Shown here piece by piece: positions 1,983 through 60,931 of a DNA stretch of 64,000 bases. This stretch comes from a virus, in IMG/VR virus record IMGVR_UViG_3300031566_005149, positions 16,158 to 80,157 of that record, one strand, 5' to 3'. The notes below the pieces were generated by a model, which had not been told where the DNA came from, did not search any database, and saw only the letters and a list, made by a program, of their open reading frames with translations. Position 1 is the stretch's first letter, and each line of letters begins with the position of its first letter. Both the position numbers and the translations under genes were made by a program.

Positions 1983-3368
1983 ATGGGAACAGGAGGAAAA
2001 GGAACAGATCCACGAAGAGCATATAGAAGTGCATACTTCGATGAAGAAATTAATTTTATCATAGGTTATCCACCGCAAGGGGCTACCGATAAAGATTATG
2101 GAACAAGGATAGATACCGTAATAAAAAATTCAATGCCATTAGTGCATATACAACCTGGAATACCAAACTTTACATTGGGTCTTGATTTAATGAGAAGAGA
2201 ACCAGCATTTCGAAACTCTTCCTTCGAAGATCAGTATGCAAGCCCTCAATTAGATCGTTTGGATTCGAGAAGTGATTATGTTACACTTTTGAGAAAACTC
2301 GGATTTTCCTTAAAACAACCGAAGCCGAACGTTACTGGTTTTTTATCATGTGCTTATTTAGCCGATTCATTTCCAACAGATACTTTTACAAATGAATATG
2401 GAGAAAACTTCCTTCAGAAAATGACCAATGTTGGTGGTGAGGGTCTGCATGGAATAACCCAGATGCTGGGTGGTCGATCTCTAACTGACACCATAGACCA
2501 AATGGCAAAAGGAGGAGGAGTCGTTGGAACGGGAGCCAAAGCTGTTAAAGGTGGTCTTGATATGTTAGGAAGTATGGCACAAGAATATGGAGGCCCGACT
2601 CTCAACCGGATTGTTAATAATGCTAATGTTTTAGCAGCCGGTGGAAGAATCGATTTTCCAATGCTATGGAAAAATAGTACCTACACACCATCATACACAA
2701 TGACAATACGATTATACAACCCAAACCCGAATAGCGAAAGAGCAACAGCCAAATATATAATTGGTCCTATAGCCGCTCTTCTATTATTAGGATTACCACA
2801 ATCAGTTGGTGAGGGAGCATATTCGTGGCCATTTATTCACCAATTCTGGTCTCCAGGAATATATAATCTTGATCCTGGGTATATAGCAAGTGTAACTGTT
2901 GTAAAGGGTGGTGATCAACAGCAAATTTCTTGGAAGCAAAGAATGGGTGTTGTAGATGTTAGGATTGATTTTGGTAGTGTATTTAATAGTATTTTATCAG
3001 CATCTTCAGCATCTCGACAAAGACCAACACTTAAAGGTTATTTAAATGCTATGGCTGATGAAAAATTTGGTGTGGTGGGGATAACGGATTTTAGTAAAGT
3101 TAATAATGAAACGGATCAAAGCCCAGCTACTATACAAAAAACTAAAAATATTGGTGCTAATGCTGGTGGTTTAACAAATTCACAGATAAAAGATTATCAA
3201 CAAAACTTATCAGCTAGACGCGGCACATTGGCGACAACACAATCTAAAACACAGTTAGATTTAACAGAGGTGGGTGAAACTATTAAAGCAAGAGTTTCTA
3301 AGGATATTAAAGAAATTGCTGATAATCTTATCGGCTTGATTCCTACTGGAGTGAAAATTAGTTTTTAA
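1983..3368 (+). CDS. Putative baseplate / tail-tube-initiator-like virion protein
   Basis: Strong SD (AAGGAGG); segments FPMLWKNSTYTPSYTMTIRLYNP and YIASVTVVKGG resemble tube-fold baseplate proteins of large myoviruses. Confidence 0.4.
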   Translation: MGTGGKGTDPRRAYRSAYFDEEINFIIGYPPQGATDKDYGTRIDTVIKNSMPLVHIQPGIPNFTLGLDLMRREPAFRNSSFEDQYASPQLDRLDSRSDYVTLLRKLGFSLKQPKPNVTGFLSCAYLADSFPTDTFTNEYGENFLQKMTNVGGEGLHGITQMLGGRSLTDTIDQMAKGGGVVGTGAKAVKGGLDMLGSMAQEYGGPTLNRIVNNANVLAAGGRIDFPMLWKNSTYTPSYTMTIRLYNPNPNSERATAKYIIGPIAALLLLGLPQSVGEGAYSWPFIHQFWSPGIYNLDPGYIASVTVVKGGDQQQISWKQRMGVVDVRIDFGSVFNSILSASSASRQRPTLKGYLNAMADEKFGVVGITDFSKVNNETDQSPATIQKTKNIGANAGGLTNSQIKDYQQNLSARRGTLATTQSKTQLDLTEVGETIKARVSKDIKEIADNLIGLIPTGVKISF

Positions 3369-28434: not shown

Positions 28435-29307
28435 TCATTTTCCATTTTTACATTTCATATCCTGATACCCACATTCTTTTTTTCTATGAACTCCTCTATG
28501 GCATTTCTTACAGTAAGTAATACATTTATCAATATCAGCACTCTCAAGTGGTTCCCATCTAATTCCTTCAATATGATGACAGTGCAAAGATTTTATAAAA
28601 CCACACTTCCGGCAAGTCCAGTTATCTCTTTCAAAAACCAGATGCCTAAGTTGTGGTTGAACTTCTCTTGATAAGTATTTTGTCTTATTTTCTTCGGCTG
28701 AATATTTTTGTTTTCTATATATTGAGCATTCCTTTTTACATTCATTACTACAATATAATCTATACTCTCCACCGACTGTTCCATTTAAAGCATATATTCT
28801 GCATTGAATTTCACTTCTTTTTGGTGTATACCACCTACCACAATATGTGCATGTAACATCTAAAATTTTAGAATTCTCTTTATTTCTTTTCACCTTTTCA
28901 GCATATTTTATTTGACTTGCATAGGTATTATATAATGGTATATTCTTTTGATAATAACCACCAGACCAATTAGGATGTTTTTTTCCTTTCATTTTTCCTT
29001 TTCGATTTCTTCTTATTAATCTTTTGGTTTCTTCCGACCGAATGAGACCATGGCTCGGACTGTTTTCTCCTCTAAAACGCCCAATTAAAGATTTACTAAT
29101 TTTTTCTTTCGTTTTATCTGAAGGATTTCTACTTGTTAAATAACACGATTTGCTACAAAAATTGCTAATTTTATGAAAGTACGTTAAATATGGATTTCCA
29201 CATTTATCACATTTATCTATATAAACATAAGCATGTTTGTTTTCAAACCATCTATTTGTTTTTAAGTCATATTTTAATTTATTTAAATTATCCCAACATA
29301 TTTTCAT
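28435..29307 (-). CDS. Free-standing HNH endonuclease with NUMOD3 repeats
   Basis: SEETKRLI, HPNWSGG; VFERDNWTCRKCG...LHCHH...CKKCH. Confidence 0.85.
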   Translation of the reverse strand: MKICWDNLNKLKYDLKTNRWFENKHAYVYIDKCDKCGNPYLTYFHKISNFCSKSCYLTSRNPSDKTKEKISKSLIGRFRGENSPSHGLIRSEETKRLIRRNRKGKMKGKKHPNWSGGYYQKNIPLYNTYASQIKYAEKVKRNKENSKILDVTCTYCGRWYTPKRSEIQCRIYALNGTVGGEYRLYCSNECKKECSIYRKQKYSAEENKTKYLSREVQPQLRHLVFERDNWTCRKCGFIKSLHCHHIEGIRWEPLESADIDKCITYCKKCHRGVHRKKECGYQDMKCKNGK

Positions 29308-29310
29308 AAA

Positions 29311-30378
29311 CTATTTATCATATCCTTTTTCTTTTATAAATGTTTTCCATTTAGTTTCATATTCCTCATCTTTAATTATATAGCTATCATATTTCCATTT
29401 TTTAAAAAAACCAGTACGTTCACTATATGGACCAAATTCTTTTCTTTTAGAATTATCATATATCGGTTTGTTGCCGTAATATTCTAAATTTGAATACCGT
29501 CTGTTGAAAAAACTGTCCTCCCCAGTATCATAATACATATACAAATAACGATAATCACCTGTCAAATAAAATTTATATAAAGTATCTTTTTCATGTTTGC
29601 TAAAATATTCTCCATCGTTCCTCATGTCAAAAAAATTTTTTGATAAAGGATTCAAATGTTGTTGACATATTACCTTCATTTCGCCACCAAGATTTCTGAA
29701 TCCAACCAACTCCTTCCAAGTGCTCGGTTGATTGTAACTTGCATAATGATCAATCTTTCCAGCATATTTATGACCCTTCGGAAATAAGGGTTGCATTCTC
29801 GGGACAATGTTTTTAATGTTTCTCTCTTTTACAAAGTCCCTCAATAAAACTTCGGGGCTGTAACTTTCAGGGATATTATTCTCTAACATGGCTATGACAT
29901 AATCAACGAACATATGAAATACCCAACATTTCATTATCATAGCGGCTGTATGTAATGTGCTATCTGCCGTAACACACATCATATCTCCATCATTGCGTTT
30001 AACCACATCTTTAAGTTTATCAACATTCTCTGGCTTCTCCCAAATGCAGTCACCGTTCGTAATTATAACAGCCTCAATATTGTTCAGGGGCCTGATGAGT
30101 CCACCCGCGAGGACCACATCATACAACCACCCTATTCGCTTCTCAGCACCGTATGTGATAGGTTTTGTTACTATTGAATGTGGTATATTCATTATATTAT
30201 CATGTGGCCAGGATTTATGTGAATCATATGATAGTATCACGTACTTTCCAGTTTTCATATAATTGTTTAATGTTGCCTCTAAGAACATGCGATGTCCAGG
30301 ATGGCTAGTGACTATAATTGCTGTATCTGTTCTTAGGATAAAATCATTTTGTTTGTATTGTTTAGATGTTGCTACCAT
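29311..30378 (-). CDS. Putative GT-A-fold glycosyltransferase, paralog of 26517-27479
   Basis: AIIVTSHP..RMFL, ITNGDCIWEKPEN, TWKELVGFR shared with paralog. Confidence 0.5.
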   Translation of the reverse strand: MVATSKQYKQNDFILRTDTAIIVTSHPGHRMFLEATLNNYMKTGKYVILSYDSHKSWPHDNIMNIPHSIVTKPITYGAEKRIGWLYDVVLAGGLIRPLNNIEAVIITNGDCIWEKPENVDKLKDVVKRNDGDMMCVTADSTLHTAAMIMKCWVFHMFVDYVIAMLENNIPESYSPEVLLRDFVKERNIKNIVPRMQPLFPKGHKYAGKIDHYASYNQPSTWKELVGFRNLGGEMKVICQQHLNPLSKNFFDMRNDGEYFSKHEKDTLYKFYLTGDYRYLYMYYDTGEDSFFNRRYSNLEYYGNKPIYDNSKRKEFGPYSERTGFFKKWKYDSYIIKDEEYETKWKTFIKEKGYDK

Positions 30379-32608: not shown

Positions 32609-33706
32609 TCACCAACCCTTTTTAATGCAATCGATAATGTATTCTCTATCTTCCTTTGTCACCCAAAATCCCACAGGAATACAAATATATTTATCATATA
32701 TACTATCTAAATTTGGAAGATTCTTTTGAAACTTCTTTGTGTATGTATAATTATCAAGTCTTTCGTGGACCCTACTTGTTGCAATGCCACATTGCCCCAT
32801 ATAATTTGCAAAGGAGGTTCTATCTTCAACCAAAATTGTATATAACCAACTAGAAGAAACTCTATCTGTTAATATTTGCGGAGTTTCTATACCATCAACG
32901 TTTTTTAGTTCTTTATCATAGTATTGGGCGTTCGACTGAGCAATTTTAACATTTTCTTCTGCTAATTTTATATTACCCATACCTATAACTGCATTTACAT
33001 CATTAAGATGGAATTTATATCCAGCTTCTTCAATATCATTGACACATCTCATATCTTTAAGATTATTTTCACGACTAATACCAAACCATCTCAAAAGTTT
33101 TCCTCTTTTGTAAGCATCTATTTCTCTTGTAAATAAAATTCCACCGTCTACAGTTGTTAGAAACTTAATAGCCTGTGTGCTTATCATACAATAATCTGAG
33201 TATTGACAATCACCGATTATTGAATCCTTATACATAGAGCCGAAGGTGTGGGCCGCATCTTCTATTAATACTAAATTATTATCTTTGGCTATTTTGGAGA
33301 TTGGTTCTAGATCCACAGGATAACCACCCCAATGAACAACAACAATTGCCTTAGTATCTTCCCGAATCGATTCTTCTATAGACTGCGGAATCATATTAAT
33401 ATCATTTCCAGTGTCTGACCAAATAATATCAGCGCCGCATGTAATAACTGGAGTTATTGACGCCGAGCAGCTCAAGGAAGGGCATATAACAGATGTCCCA
33501 GGACCAACGCCAGCTATATGTAAAGCTAAAGTTAACCCATGTGTACCAGAAGATAGAGACATTACATTTTTATTGTTAAATTTTTTAGATAAAACTTTTT
33601 CATATTCTTCTACTTTTTCGCCCTGCCCAATCCAACCACTGAATAATACTTTTAATAAATCATTTTGAACAGTTGGAGACATGGCAACTTTAAACAGTGG
33701 TATCAT
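32609..33706 (-). CDS. DegT/DnrJ/EryC1/StrS PLP-dependent sugar aminotransferase
   Basis: SSGTHGL, VVHWGG, IEDAAH, STQAIKFLTTVDGG (catalytic Lys). Confidence 0.95.
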   Translation of the reverse strand: MIPLFKVAMSPTVQNDLLKVLFSGWIGQGEKVEEYEKVLSKKFNNKNVMSLSSGTHGLTLALHIAGVGPGTSVICPSLSCSASITPVITCGADIIWSDTGNDINMIPQSIEESIREDTKAIVVVHWGGYPVDLEPISKIAKDNNLVLIEDAAHTFGSMYKDSIIGDCQYSDYCMISTQAIKFLTTVDGGILFTREIDAYKRGKLLRWFGISRENNLKDMRCVNDIEEAGYKFHLNDVNAVIGMGNIKLAEENVKIAQSNAQYYDKELKNVDGIETPQILTDRVSSSWLYTILVEDRTSFANYMGQCGIATSRVHERLDNYTYTKKFQKNLPNLDSIYDKYICIPVGFWVTKEDREYIIDCIKKGW

Positions 33707-34064
33707 TATCTAAATCCTCCTTCTCTTTCCACTTTCCATTTTCTTTAACCTCTATCTTTAAATTTTTCTCGTCCATCATTTTTTCGACTTTTTCCTCTAT
33801 CTTTACACCCTCAATTATTTCCTGTGCTTTTCGATTAACCCATATTCTAAACTTTGTACTATTAGATAATCTCTGCATGGCTATCTTTTTATTTATATGT
33901 TGATGTCTGTGTTCACGACTTTCGCCTCTCGCTCCAGATTCTCTATGAATTATTCGAACTCCCGAATCAGTTTTATTCTGATGTTGTCCACCCTTACCAC
34001 CAGACCTGAAAGTCTGAACCTCGAAGTCTTTCTTGGTTAGTGTGAATAATTTTTTCTTTACCAT
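33690..34064 (-). CDS. RF-1 domain GGQ peptidyl-tRNA hydrolase (ArfB / release-factor-like, no codon-recognition domain)
   Basis: FRSGGKGGQHQNKTDSGVRIIH...RHQHINK; only 124 aa. Confidence 0.92.
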   Translation of the reverse strand: MVKKKLFTLTKKDFEVQTFRSGGKGGQHQNKTDSGVRIIHRESGARGESREHRHQHINKKIAMQRLSNSTKFRIWVNRKAQEIIEGVKIEEKVEKMMDEKNLKIEVKENGKWKEKEDLDNDTTV

Positions 34065-42112: not shown

Positions 42113-42196
42113 GCCACCGTCCCTCAGCGGTTGAGAGGACCGGATTTGTAATCCGGTGGATAATATCCCACGTAGGTTCGAATCCTACCGGTGGCT
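42113..42196 (+). tRNA. tRNA-Thr(UGU) with long variable arm
   Basis: GCCACCG/CGGTGGC acceptor; CCTC/GAGG D arm; CCGGA-TTTGTAA-TCCGG anticodon arm; 15 nt variable region; GTAGG-TTCGAAT-CCTAC; no encoded CCA. Confidence 0.88.
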
Positions 42197-42234
42197 CTAT
42201 CCTTAATTAAATCAATAAGTTAGGAGAAACAACA

Positions 42235-51723: not shown

Positions 51724-51726
51724 TTG

Positions 51727-52290
51727 ATGAAAGAGTTGCCACCAAAGTTTGACATGTTGGGTCAATTCAAAATTAAAAAAGATGATACAATATTCGACGC
51801 GTCCTGCACTCCAGCTGTAATCATGTTCAACCCAAAATATCCTCATAATGTTGGTGCAGCTGTCAGAGCATGTTCATGCTTTGGAGTTAACCATTTAGTA
51901 TTTACCGGTGATAGATTATTGGATGAGTTGGGTGAGCAAAGTAAGAAAGGATATCGTCTACCAAGAGAAGAAAGGATGAAAGGTTATAAAGACGTTAATA
52001 TCTATAACGATCAATATCCTTTTAATAGATTCTCTAAAGATGTAACTCCTGTTGCTGTTGAAGTTCGAAATAACTCACAGCCCCTGCCAAATTTTCGTCA
52101 TCCAAGAAATCCAGTATATGTATTTGGTCCAGAAGACGGATCTTTACCTCAGATATATTTGAAGCATTGCCATATGTTTGTAATTATACCGTCAAAGCAT
52201 TGCTTGAATTTAGCTGCCGCTGTAAATATTGTATTATATGATAGAGTTGCAAAATCAAATTACACTTCTAGTGATTATATGAAAATTTAA
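51727..52290 (+). CDS. SpoU/TrmH-family RNA 2'-O-methyltransferase
   Basis: NPKYPHNVGAAVR, YVFGPEDGSL, IIPS..CLNLAAAVNIVLYDR. Confidence 0.92.
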   Translation: MKELPPKFDMLGQFKIKKDDTIFDASCTPAVIMFNPKYPHNVGAAVRACSCFGVNHLVFTGDRLLDELGEQSKKGYRLPREERMKGYKDVNIYNDQYPFNRFSKDVTPVAVEVRNNSQPLPNFRHPRNPVYVFGPEDGSLPQIYLKHCHMFVIIPSKHCLNLAAAVNIVLYDRVAKSNYTSSDYMKI

Positions 52291-55370: not shown

Positions 55371-55386
55371 AGAACAAAAGTAAAAT
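55371..55386 (+). promoter_or_regulatory. Putative late promoter heading the amber operon (AGAACAAAAGTAAAAT)
   Basis: Close variant of the late motif, 20 nt before the leader ATG. Confidence 0.55.
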
Positions 55387-55405
55387 TCACTTAAGGAGCA
55401 GAATC

Positions 55406-55489
55406 ATGAAATATTTCAAACCTCGCCCTATCTAGATTACCTCTTGGATCTCATCCAGGGGTCCTCCCATTCACTATAATAAACCATAA
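55406..55489 (+). CDS. Leader peptide MKYFKPRPI(TAG)ITSWISSRGPPIHYNKP with in-frame amber and RGPP motif
   Basis: SD TAAGGAG at 55392-55398; TAG 55433-55435; RGPP 55457-55468; TAA 55487-55489. Confidence 0.75.
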
Positions 55490-55544
55490 TGAGATCAATA
55501 CGCAAAAATAAACCACTTTAATGAATCAAACGGAGGAAACAAAC

Positions 55545-55943
55545 ATGACTGAAATAACTTACACTAAAGATCAACGAAAAGTATTTAAGGAACTGAAGAT
55601 GAAGATTAAGGCTGAACTAAACAATTTGGTGATGAGCATTCGCCTCGGTAAGCCTTTGAGAAAACCGTGTGTGTACAATATATCCATTGAAGAACACAAA
55701 ATAATGTTTGGGGGTTTAGACCACAATCGGGTTACATATAGACATGCACATATTGCATATTGCATGTTCTTCAACCGTACGCCATATGCAATGATCGAGC
55801 ATCCAAGAAAAAATAACAAACCATCGTCCTACATGATCGAAGACTATCAAAAGAATTGGGAAAATCAATTAAATGATGCTATTAGTATGATAGCGGCAGT
55901 GGAAAGTGAAGAAGATGAAGAAGCGATTGTGGAGGCTGCATAA
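55545..55943 (+). CDS. Conserved phage hypothetical protein (RHAHIAYC...RTPY.MIE motif)
   Basis: SD GGAGG; alternative in-frame start at 55521. Confidence 0.8.
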   Translation: MTEITYTKDQRKVFKELKMKIKAELNNLVMSIRLGKPLRKPCVYNISIEEHKIMFGGLDHNRVTYRHAHIAYCMFFNRTPYAMIEHPRKNNKPSSYMIEDYQKNWENQLNDAISMIAAVESEEDEEAIVEAA

Positions 55944-55944
55944 C

Positions 55945-56256
55945 ATGAACCCAAAACCAACGTAGGACAAACTATTCGTAATCATACGAAAAGATCTATC
56001 CCACTCTCAGAGAGCTGTTCAAGCTGGCCATGTGTTAGCAGAGTATATGATACACAGCTCTCTGGAAGGCTGGCAAAATACAACCCTTGTATATCTAGGA
56101 GTTAAGGGGTTGAAACAATTGGAAAATCTAAAATTCAAATTGGAATGTGAAGGTATCCAGTTCGTCGAGTTTAAGGAACCTGATATAGGCTACGAAACGA
56201 CAGCTATAGCCAGTGATGTTGATTGCGAGATCTTTTCTAAAATGAATCTCATATAA
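55945..56256 (+). CDS. Pth2-like peptidyl-tRNA hydrolase interrupted by in-frame TAG at codon 7
   Basis: SD GGAGG, ATG 55945, TAG 55963-55965, then KLFVIIRKDL...AVQAGH, EF.EPDIG.ETTAIA; the ORF track shows only the part from 56032. Confidence 0.85.
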
Positions 56257-56264
56257 AATGGTGT

Positions 56265-56339
56265 GGGCCAGTAGCTCAGTGGTAGAGCGGGAGACTCTAA
56301 ATCTCTTGGTCGAGAGTTCAAAACTCTCTTGGCCCGCCA
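56265..56339 (+). tRNA. Amber suppressor tRNA (anticodon CUA), CCA encoded
   Basis: GGGCCAG/TTGGCCC; GCTC-AGTGGTA-GAGC; GGAGA-CTCTAAA-TCTCT; GAGAG-TTCAAAA-CTCTC; G73-CCA; followed by T-run. Confidence 0.93.
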
Positions 56340-56367
56340 TTTTTTTGACTAAAAGGTACAGTAATAT

Positions 56368-56387
56368 CTATATATATTAATAAATGA
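56368..56387 (+). promoter_or_regulatory. Putative early promoter
   Basis: CTATATATATTAATAAATGA. Confidence 0.7.
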
Positions 56388-56422
56388 CAGACGGATATCA
56401 ACCTTTTAAAAAGGAGATCGTC

Positions 56423-57204: not shown

Positions 57205-58770
57205 ATGCAACTGAGACAAATTAAAGATGAAAGATGTAAAGTTTGTGGTTGTAAGGCTGTTTTGGAGACTAGTGGTCGTAAGCATGTAAATGGTCAATAC
57301 TTTGAAACTAGAGAGTATTCCTGTGGAGCAGTTGTTAAGTGGGTTCCGAATTTCAGTCGTCTTGAACAACCCAAAAAATGTCCGATGGACCCCATTATAC
57401 TCAGAGACCGCGCAAAACAAAAAACGGCATATGAAAAACTGATTAAATATATCAACCGACTTAATGTGGACGATGAATGGAAGCTGCAAGCCGAAACTCA
57501 CATACGCTTTTTAAGAAATTATGGAAAGCTCTAATGAATCAACCACAAAGAAAAATTCTAGCCCTGTTTATTCTTTTAGTTTCAGATTCTATATTAACCG
57601 TATATCTAATAACAGTGGGCTGGGAAGAAGTTAATCCGTTAATGAACTGGGTGATAGTCATATCGAATGTTTCATGGATGGCAATAACTAAAATATTGAT
57701 CGGGTTATTTTCCATATTGTTTCTGTTTAAATATCATAAACAAACCATTAAGTATATCGACTGGACAATTCTTATATACGCAATTTTTCTATTCGGAGGA
57801 TTAGCTCTGCAATTTATCATTGAATTAATAAGATAAAAAGGAGAAATCAAAACATGGAAAGCGGTAATGAACGAATGAACTTCTTTCACTTATGTATGGA
57901 GTGTGGGGGTTCATTCAGGGGATTCATAAAACAGACAACCTGTTGGACCTGTATAAAACATTACGTATTAACCAAATATTTCTAGGGGGTAAAATGCTCA
58001 TATTTGAACAAATTTCAAAAGAAAGTGACCAGGAAAGATCTGATCTGTTGATCATCAGTTTGCGTACTATATCGAGAATTGAGGATCGGGCCTTGAATGT
58101 GGTTCGTGTTACATTCCTCAACAAAGAACAATTCCTAATCCATATCGATAACAGAGGTAAAACTCCTAATGATCAAATCGGCGCAGCGGATATTTTAGCC
58201 AAATTGGTTGGTAATACCCGCGCGGCCCCACCCATAATACAATGTAGAAGAATAACAAGAAGGAGCTACTAAGATGTTTCAAACTAATAAATATATCGTT
58301 GTTAAAAATCCTCTTAATGACTTTCATATGATCATCTTTCCACCCTTGATAAATCATTGGGATATGTTCCAAACGATAAATTCAAAATTCTCATATGAAA
58401 TAATTTCAGGTGGTTATATTGATGAATTTTTAAATTGTTATGGTTCATCCATGACCCTACGTATTAAGTCGAGACCTGAAGAAGACACTGAAATACTTCA
58501 TCAAATGCTCAATATTAAGGATAAAGAAATCAAATTCAAAGGATGGGCTGTATAATGAAATTTATGGAAGGCGCTATATGCTCAGTCAAAGTTCGAGCTG
58601 GAGATAGAATGATTTGGGTTAGGGGTAATATAACAAAATATCTTCATCAATCGGGGCAATATGCTGTTGATTCTGATAATCATATTTATTTTTGCTATCC
58701 ACATGAGGTTTTGGTTCCCATCGATGTCGTAGAAACTCAACTGAAGAAATTATACGAAGGGGCATTTTAA
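57205..58770 (+). CDS. Run of small ORFs (57205-57534 zinc ribbon; 57534-57836 DUF5658-like membrane protein; about 57994-58272; 58274-58555; 58555-58770)
   Basis: D..LT.Y....G.EE.NPLM...K motif in the membrane protein; coupling overlaps. Confidence 0.65.
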
Positions 58771-59444: not shown

Positions 59445-59738
59445 ATGGCAGATAAAAAAGAATCAATAGACTTAACTGCATTAGCATATGGTTGGGGTTG
59501 TCCGGTATGTGAGGAAAGTAACTCAATATCGCAGATTCCAACTGATGCTAACGCAGATAAAAAAGAATCAATAGACTTAACTGCATTAGCATATGGTTGG
59601 GATTGTCCGGTATGTGAGGAAAGTAACTCAGTATCAAAGATTCCAACTGATGCTAACTCTATCGCTATCGGTGATGTTCAATGTGATGGATGTCTAAAGT
59701 TATTTGCAGTGAACCAATATTACCACGACTTTGAATAG
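59445..59738 (+). CDS. Zinc-ribbon protein with recent 105 bp tandem duplication
   Basis: ADKKESIDLTALAYGW.CPVCEESNS.S.IPTDAN x2. Confidence 0.8.
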   Translation: MADKKESIDLTALAYGWGCPVCEESNSISQIPTDANADKKESIDLTALAYGWDCPVCEESNSVSKIPTDANSIAIGDVQCDGCLKLFAVNQYYHDFE

Positions 59739-60519: not shown

Positions 60520-60533
60520 TGAAAGGAAATTAA

Positions 60534-60931
60534 ATGTTAGAATTTAAAAAAGTTTTACCTCATGATATTCACATAACCTCATCAGCAAATGGAGGATATA
60601 TTGTAACTGTTGGATGTTGTATTACTGTATTTAACACTGCTATTGAACTTTTTGGTGCCTTAGAAGACTATATCTTAGATCCTAAAGAAATCGAAAGAAG
60701 ATATTATAATCAAATGCAGAAAAACATCAATACGATTGCTGGCGGTGAACCTACATGTTAGAATTTAAAAAAGTTTTACCTCATGATATTCACATAACCT
60801 CATCAGCAAATGGAGGATATATTGTAACTGTTGGATGTTGTATTACTGTATTTAACACTGCTGTTGAACTTCTTGATGTCATCGATGCCTACTCAGATGA
60901 AGAATTCATGCATCAAATTCAGGAGTATTAA
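60534..60931 (+). repeat. Tandem paralogs 60534-60761 and 60755-60931 sharing an identical 108 bp 5' end
   Basis: MLEFKKVLPHDIHITSSANGGYIVTVGCCITVFNTA identical at DNA level, different C-termini. Confidence 0.9.

Follow-up and report, generated by a model that had tools for sequence, protein, structure and literature searches.

Among the closest described parallels to the locus analysed here are the bacterial RAPP/RGPP arrest peptides (ApdA, ApdP, ApcA and, with the variant RAGP, SecM). The locus is an operon on the + strand of a 64,000-nucleotide stretch of virus DNA, hereafter the window, which covers bases 16,158 to 80,157 of one 80,157-bp contig with 35% G+C (IMG/VR record IMGVR_UViG_3300031566_005149). 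It consists of a leader open reading frame (ORF) interrupted by UAG, a gene for a helical protein with a YRHxHIAY motif (YRH), a gene for a Pth2-like protein that also carries an early in-frame UAG, and a tRNA with the anticodon CUA, tRNA(CUA). A first-pass annotation, made from the sequence alone, had proposed that the unit is amber-gated and brings its own suppressor tRNA, and that the genome is not recoded as a whole. All of the elements that it named were recovered as a single + strand unit at 55,371-56,346, and comparative evidence supports its core claim.

As in the RAPP/RGPP systems, a small ORF with Arg-(Ala/Gly)-Pro-Pro lies before a co-oriented regulated gene, and its RNA may pair with the Shine-Dalgarno (SD) sequence of that gene. 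The earlier hint that this motif matters was well founded: RGPP and RAPP are experimentally established to arrest bacterial ribosomes and to resist EF-P, with RGPP being the most robust and least context-dependent, and RSPP and RDPP partly permissive (PMC12992588, PMC10951233). The present locus differs from these systems in several respects. Its motif can be reached only after readthrough of an in-frame UAG, and the suppressor tRNA that would be sensed is encoded in the same operon. The leader peptide has 27 residues and contains no signal or membrane segment, and for this reason release by a pulling force is not expected. The regulated genes encode a Pth2-like protein and a helical protein rather than Sec or YidC components. 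In addition, many relatives of the leader end in (K/R)PP-stop, not RGPP.

Parallels are also found among systems that sense decoding by other means. In prfB, which encodes RF2, an early in-frame stop in a translation-factor gene likewise acts as a decoding sensor; prfB escapes the stop by +1 frameshifting when RF2 is scarce, providing negative feedback by its own product, whereas escape here would depend on a suppressor tRNA encoded in cis. Phages recoded to code 15 (crAss-like, Lak and others) share a phage tRNA(CUA) and in-frame TAGs that depend on it. In contrast, this phage and 18 relatives use the standard code, with TAG ending many genes, and the in-frame TAGs found are confined to the small operon of the tRNA itself. 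The trpL and hisL attenuators and T-box elements resemble the operon in that a short leader reports on one charged tRNA and sets downstream expression; here, the sensed tRNA decodes a stop and comes from the same operon, and the readout appears to be translational instead of transcription termination. Finally, the lambda bar minigenes are very short ORFs tied to host peptidyl-tRNA hydrolase (Pth), comparable to the M-T-UAG leaders of relatives when these are unsuppressed. They poison Pth-deficient hosts through peptidyl-tRNA drop-off, lack a suppressor tRNA and an arrest motif, and are unlike the window leader, which has nine codons before its stop.

We found no published description of the cassette in the literature. 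Borges et al. propose recoding and suppressor tRNAs as a timer and mention neither such a cassette nor a hydrolase (bioRxiv 10.1101/2021.08.26.457843). Likewise, the PTH2 of jumbo phages is mentioned as a putative factor for ribosome rescue, but is connected there with neither suppressor tRNAs nor in-frame stops (PMC7824862).

On sequence grounds, it is probable, though well short of certain, that the operon is translated only while its own tRNA(CUA) reads UAG, through ribosome arrest, SD unmasking and a second gate. Ribosomes would start on the leader and normally terminate at the UAG of codon 10. When charged tRNA(CUA) outcompetes RF1, a ribosome would read a further seven codons to Arg-Gly-Pro-Pro and arrest there. 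Standing on the Gly-Pro-Pro codons, it would free the GGAGGA of the YRH gene from pairing with UCCUCC. Alternatively, a ribosome that runs on would meet two TAATG stop-start overlaps leading into the YRH gene. Either route would require prior readthrough of UAG. The Pth2-like gene would be initiated from its own good SD and ATG and would meet a second UAG at codon 7; because of this codon, its conserved domain is expected to be made only with readthrough. The output would be YRH protein and Pth2-like enzyme in proportion to suppressor activity relative to termination. The evidence from sequence lies in the anatomy of the unit, its conservation, the exclusive use of TAG as the gate and the lack of recoding. 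From these we infer the expression and charging of the tRNA, the arrest, the SD unmasking and the action of the enzyme on peptidyl- or aminoacyl-tRNA.

The cassette is widely conserved. Counts were made over 68 loci, namely 67 IMG/VR loci retrieved with a Pth2-like profile scan and the window. All four parts occur together in 50/68. A YRH homolog is present directly upstream of the Pth2-like gene in 56 loci, as detected with an iterated hidden Markov model, and usually ends within ~30 nt of the Pth2-like start or overlaps it. Downstream of the Pth2-like gene, a co-oriented tRNA(CUA) is present in 57/68 loci; in 27 it lies no more than 60 nt past the stop, and it is often the sole tRNA within 3 kb. 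Among the 56 loci with a YRH gene, a TAG-containing leader precedes it in 43 by a strict pattern and in 54 by a looser one. TAA or TGA takes the place of the TAG in 0/56 each, and the TAG pattern occurs in 0/967 background windows.

In the window, the leader is preceded by the SD sequence AAGGAG (55,393-55,398), 7 nt before the ATG at 55,406. The ORF of 27 codons (55,406-55,489, +) comprises nine sense codons, the UAG (codon 10, 55,433-55,435) and 17 more codons that include RGPP (55,457-55,468), and ends with TAA at 55,487. Readthrough would give ...WISSRGPP..., with the motif located six codons before the leader stop and 76 nt before the YRH ATG at 55,545. Independent support from reads is thin for the two gates; the leader TAG is confirmed by a 247-nt contig from another sample, which spans it and is identical to the window. 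A relay ORF of 10 codons (55,489-55,521, +) follows; its ATG overlaps the leader TAA and its TAA overlaps the ATG at 55,521, both as TAATG. In two relatives (L003, L004), the leader frame overlaps the YRH ATG instead. Leaders of the family begin with M and 0-12 codons before the TAG, continue for a few codons to (R/K)x(P/S)P and then stop, the commonest version being M-T-TAG-V-x-(K/R)-P-P-stop. RGPP or RAPP is found in 15 loci (14 relatives and the window), 58-94 nt upstream; in most loci, 46-68 nt separate the end of the motif from the start of YRH. Because these ORFs are so short, a codon log-odds coding score was too weak to be applied to them.

The sequence context of the gates is also distinctive. 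The base after the TAG is a purine in 65/70 gates, compared with 142/236 terminal TAGs (p = 4e-8). A purine after UAG favours amber suppression in Escherichia coli. The first-pass annotation had further pointed to a proline two residues before the stop as a shared context; this is true of both ambers in the window and is not conserved in relatives.

The second gate lies in the Pth2-like gene (55,945-56,256, +), which has 103 codons, a UAG at codon 7 (55,963-55,965) and a terminal TAA. Its SD sequence GGAGG (55,931-55,935) is positioned 9 nt before the ATG at 55,945. The conserved domain starts two codons past the TAG, and there is no ATG, GTG or TTG between the TAG and KLFVIIRKDL. The next canonical start, GTG at 56,032 (codon 30), would delete the AVQAGH core. 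Homologs form a family of 122 clusters, typically of 96-97 amino acids and starting M(x)KLYV. The window TAG aligns with their initiator methionine, and all 20 family-invariant residues are intact downstream.

In-frame stops recur in this gene across the family. They are present in 16/68 loci, all TAG and at about ten different positions, compared with 1/56 for the co-transcribed YRH gene (Fisher p = 4e-4). Five are N-terminal (the window, L033, L057, L059 and L063); in the four relatives, all of them distant, the TAG falls between the only start codon and KLYV. In the other eleven loci, homology continues beyond an internal TAG; these TAGs occupy variable positions on the protein surface, and six fall in the loop that precedes the invariant Trp. 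Where the YRH gene and leader are missing, the gate tends to be on the Pth2-like gene itself; the window has both gates. Early TAGs are also found in the Pth2-like genes of four cultured phages. Acinetobacter phage ME3 has M-T-TAG and an annotated tRNA with anticodon CTA ~450 nt upstream. Yersinia phage fHe-Yen9-04 has M-S-H-TAG in an unannotated gene, and in Xanthomonas phage XacN1 (L181) and Stenotrophomonas phage RAS14 (L182), M-K-TAG heads an N-terminally extended fusion form. This form (~280 amino acids; L005 at 2452-3300, L181, L182) has the Pth2-like domain at its C-terminus, and its N-terminal part contains His/Asp-rich motifs that appear HD-like by eye only.

The product of the gene is best described as a Pth2-fold protein with putative peptidyl-tRNA hydrolase activity, since its Pfam score is below cut-off and one loop differs from canonical Pth2. 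The score for PF01981 is 15.4 bits against a gathering cut-off of 23 (E = 0.023); precomputed matches to this family exist for many of the homologs with 60-70% identity. The family profile matches one peptidyl-tRNA hydrolase in the PDB (E = 0.004). In this alignment, the invariant D80 corresponds to the Asp of the DAG motif and AVQAGH corresponds to CVQSCH. The structural model has a mean predicted local distance difference test score (pLDDT) of 90.3, and Foldseek assigns it a probability of 1.00 and template-modelling (TM) scores of 0.63-0.74 to solved Pth2 structures (AF2095, MJ0051, human Bit1, PH1539, Sulfolobus solfataricus Pth2). The loop before the conserved His is two residues shorter than in Pth2, and Arg/Gln replaces Gly-Lys.

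Over the 80 kb available, the phage uses the standard code and is not recoded to code 15, in agreement with the first-pass annotation. TAG terminates 11/59 long ORFs, which argues that the genome is not recoded, and reading TAG as sense gives no gain in coding density over the 80-kb contig (0.863, compared with 0.873 under code 11). In a comparison of every translated frame, with TAG rendered as X, against three related contigs, real genes aligned only as far as their TAG, and no conserved gene on the 80-kb contig other than the Pth2-like gene contained a TAG spanned by homology. The analysis was extended to all or large parts of 19 contigs (~2.4 Mb), comprising 15 contigs with an in-frame TAG in the Pth2-like gene, three relatives without the TAG and the contig studied here. 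None is recoded: many long ORFs end at TAG in every contig, and TAG as sense adds no density beyond TGA and TAA controls. A cross-genome tblastn search of 7,582 TAG-containing frames found a credible homology-spanned TAG in the Pth2-like gene only. Whole-contig density and cross-genome homology were used because counts of TAGs flanked by open frame in 6-kb loci were swamped by non-coding frames, and crude coding density on these loci gave no clear signal.

The evidence on pairing between leader and SD is mixed. In the minimum-free-energy fold of the window, UCCUCC within the Gly-Pro-Pro codons (55,462-55,467, +) pairs with GGAGGA at 55,532-55,537. A predefined helix in a 44-locus alignment is 66% paired, compared with 38-49% when slid, and its covariation score was reached by only 3/500 shuffles. 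In one relative (L004), CCCCCC faces a GGGG SD sequence. Duplexes between motif codons and SD average -7.8 kcal/mol, compared with -4.5 for shuffled sequences and -3.5 for other upstream positions (p ~1e-7), a test that cannot separate peptide-level from RNA-level selection because Pro-Pro codons are by nature similar to an anti-SD sequence. This and several further results weigh against amber gating of the operon in the form proposed. The core SD pairs are invariant across the family, being forced by the proline codons. RNAalifold returned no consensus pairs for 44 leader-to-start stretches, and the local fold of the window is no stabler than shuffles (z = -0.34). The relatives closest to the phage have no TAG in the Pth2-like gene, which indicates a recent origin of the codon-7 TAG in this phage. 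The tRNA(CUA) of some phages, ME3 among them, is upstream and not downstream of the Pth2-like gene. A functional tRNA would also read the terminal TAGs of other genes. TAG is the stop codon of about 13% of the long ORFs in these phages, and their readthrough extensions are not shortened (median 11 codons, compared with 9 for TAA and 6 for TGA); a working suppressor would therefore have to be weak, timed or costly. Finally, other TAG-containing genes may exist elsewhere, as the contig represents only about a quarter of the genome.

Three other explanations were weighed. It is unlikely that the cassette exists to let tRNA(CUA) regulate itself positively through nonsense polarity, in which Rho would stop transcription on the RNA left untranslated past the upstream UAGs until the tRNA relieves this. 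This would give a bistable late switch with the proteins as secondary passengers or helpers. Polarity through Rho is established bacterial biology, and the layout suits it, given that the gates lie upstream of the tRNA in the window, the unit runs from one promoter-type motif to a T-run, and the tRNA lies downstream of the Pth2-like gene on the same strand in most loci, within 60 nt of the stop in 27. However, polarity on the tRNA cannot be general because the ME3 tRNA(CUA) is located ~450 nt upstream of the gated gene. The transcribing polymerase may also be phage-encoded and might not be sensitive to Rho, and polarity does not account for the conserved arrest motif and its pairing with the SD. 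Quite unlikely, in turn, is neutral tolerance at an early stage of code change, by which a phage that has an amber suppressor would survive TAG mutations as these drift into its genes, leaving the codon-7 TAG as a passenger without regulatory role. In-frame stops have been proposed to accumulate after acquisition of a suppressor tRNA (Borges et al., bioRxiv 10.1101/2021.08.26.457843), and tolerance would fit both the lack of the TAG in the closest relatives and the variable surface positions of the internal TAGs. Drift should nevertheless strike many genes, whereas homology-spanned TAGs across the 19 contigs are restricted to the Pth2-like gene and the co-transcribed YRH gene is nearly free of them (1/56 versus 16/68). 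Moreover, 54/56 loci retain the leader TAG, whose place ahead of the arrest motif is fixed, and the purine after gate TAGs sets these apart.

The codon-7 TAG could also reflect a gene broken by a recent nonsense mutation, an assembly error, or initiation past the TAG through reinitiation or a non-canonical codon, leaving the tRNA irrelevant to the Pth2-like gene; we consider this very unlikely. Position 55,963 falls in a gap between independent low-depth contigs, and 55,944-55,965 is uncovered in two independent samples; the three runs that are possible sources nonetheless contain all sampled words of the stretch. The TAG is exactly at the position of the homologs' start codon, and the gene caller of a protein database returned only a 69-amino-acid remnant. 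Against this, the family-invariant residues beyond the TAG are intact, a good SD and ATG lie six codons upstream, and initiation at codon 30 would cost the AVQAGH core. Early TAGs also recur independently in L033, L057, L059, L063 and the four cultured phages.

Amber gating by the cis-encoded tRNA might be taken one step further, to a closed translational homeostat in which the enzyme resets the switch. We regard this extension as possible but rather doubtful. The leader would convert the competition between readthrough and RF1 termination into arrest, and arrest would switch on YRH and the Pth2-like enzyme. The enzyme, perhaps guided by YRH, would then act on a tRNA substrate, either the arrested peptidyl-tRNA or the suppressor tRNA itself when charged or bearing a peptide. 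Such a reset may be likened to that of SecM by SecA.

The tRNA(CUA) itself (56,265-56,339, +; 75 nt) was identified by ARAGORN and scores 67.7 bits against the Rfam tRNA model RF00005 (cut-off 29). It is a class I tRNA with anticodon loop CUCUAAA, discriminator G and an encoded CCA (56,337-56,339). Initiator tRNAs are marked by an unpaired 1-72 position and three G-C pairs in the anticodon stem. As G1-C72 is paired here and the anticodon stem (GGAGA/UCUCU) lacks the three G-C pairs, the tRNA has elongator features, and the idea that it reads UAG as a start codon aligned with the homologs' methionine was dropped. Nearest-neighbour identity among 300+ phage tRNAs gave no consistent isotype, and the discriminator and acceptor stem vary among 60 CUA tRNAs. 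In two relatives (L002, 3285-3608; L003, 3309-3641), a gene for a DUF5658 membrane protein separates the Pth2-like gene from tRNA(CUA); in the window, a DUF5658 gene is present 1.1 kb downstream of the tRNA (57,477-57,836, +).

The YRH gene (55,545-55,943, +) encodes 132 amino acids, with a longer form possible from the ATG at 55,521, and has the motif as RHAHIAY in the window. Its SD sequence GGAGGA (55,532-55,537) ends 7 nt before the ATG at 55,545, with the GGAGG core (55,532-55,536) 8 nt before. The high-confidence AlphaFold model (pLDDT 92.6) has three long helices, and Lys22, Arg66, His69, Ile70, Ile84 and Glu85 are near-invariant. The protein matched no Pfam or PHROG family, had no Foldseek match at E <= 0.001 and no Atlas neighbour, and gave only generic helical-hairpin rows with Z under 7 in VIA-align. 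The junction of the two genes (55,876-55,965, +) is unlike that of most relatives: the distance from the conserved end of YRH to the Pth2-like core is 107 nt, compared with 2-30 nt. The gene has an extra acidic tail, within which lies a remnant resembling an ancestral overlapping Pth2-like start (ATGATGCTATTAGTA). An insertion or duplication seems to have removed the usual overlap between the two genes, giving rise to the new ATG and TAG.

Two promoter-like motifs bracket the unit at 55,371-56,346. The first, AGAACA-N4-TAAA (55,371-55,384, +), is located 22 nt before the leader ATG. AGAACA-N4-5-TAAA occurs ten times in the window against 0.87 expected; the copy at 55,371 is the only one on the + strand, and the other nine are on the - strand in gaps before structural genes, which makes 'late-type promoter', the label in the first-pass annotation, a fair one. 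A run of seven Ts (56,340-56,346, +) directly after the CCA is the likely end of the unit. The second motif, TATCTATATATATTAATAA(A/G)TGA, spans ~25-30 nt, has six copies on the + strand in the small-gene region (39,554, 47,049, 53,326, 56,365, 58,781 and 63,950) and looks like a second promoter class. One copy, at 56,356-56,395, begins 10 nt past the T-run of the tRNA. Scans for sigma-70 promoters and intrinsic terminators found nothing above chance.

The sequencing runs listed for the stretch come from soil metagenomes, with no RNA run among them. Genes for a tail sheath and a baseplate wedge protein are present on the contig, which is about a quarter of the genome of a ~300-kb soil jumbo myophage. 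This estimate is based on two IMG/VR contigs of 223 and 248 kb, rated 71-79% complete, whose sheaths share 64-68% identity with the one encoded here. A DNA search of the stretch against cultured phages matched only tRNA-like pieces. Among the late genes is a 124-amino-acid protein with an RF-1/GGQ domain (33,690-34,064, -; Pfam E = 2e-17). It resembles ArfB/ICT1, a ribosome-dependent type of peptidyl-tRNA hydrolase, and with the Pth2-like gene constitutes a second candidate factor for release of stalled chains in the phage. The small-gene region that contains the tRNAs also encodes a SpoU/TrmH-type RNA methylase (51,724-52,290, +; Pfam E = 1.5e-18). ARAGORN predicts an 85-nt tRNA-Thr(UGU) at 42,113-42,197 (+); its variable arm is long and its anticodon stem has six pairs, which is unusual for Thr. 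At 28,435-30,378 (-), TAG is the stop codon of a gene of 355 amino acids, and one codon further on, in frame with it, comes an HNH-endonuclease gene; amber readthrough would fuse the two, an arrangement that could be due to chance. The + strand also contains a tandem 105-nt repeat (59,448-59,657; 96% identical) and a pair of 145-nt repeats 221 nt apart (60,526-60,891; 92% identical).

If the homeostat reading is correct, the cassette would be a natural tRNA-operated circuit that contains sensor, actuator and signal molecule within ~1 kb, and 'orphan' suppressor tRNAs in standard-code phages would gain a defined target. With the proposed gating, the cassette would join an arrest-peptide leader to stop-codon sensing of the prfB kind, with arrest occurring only after a cis-encoded tRNA overrides the stop. 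Many standard-code phages carry amber suppressor tRNAs without a known client; the cassette offers their own operon as that client. It also points to further activity of the Pth2-like protein, which is widespread in phages, and of the helical protein encoded beside it. If confirmed, the cassette would be a compact natural switch that reports the balance of suppression and termination in the infected cell, and would provide a ready-made part for suppressor-controlled expression. For the phages themselves, it is a plausible first foothold toward stop-codon recoding.

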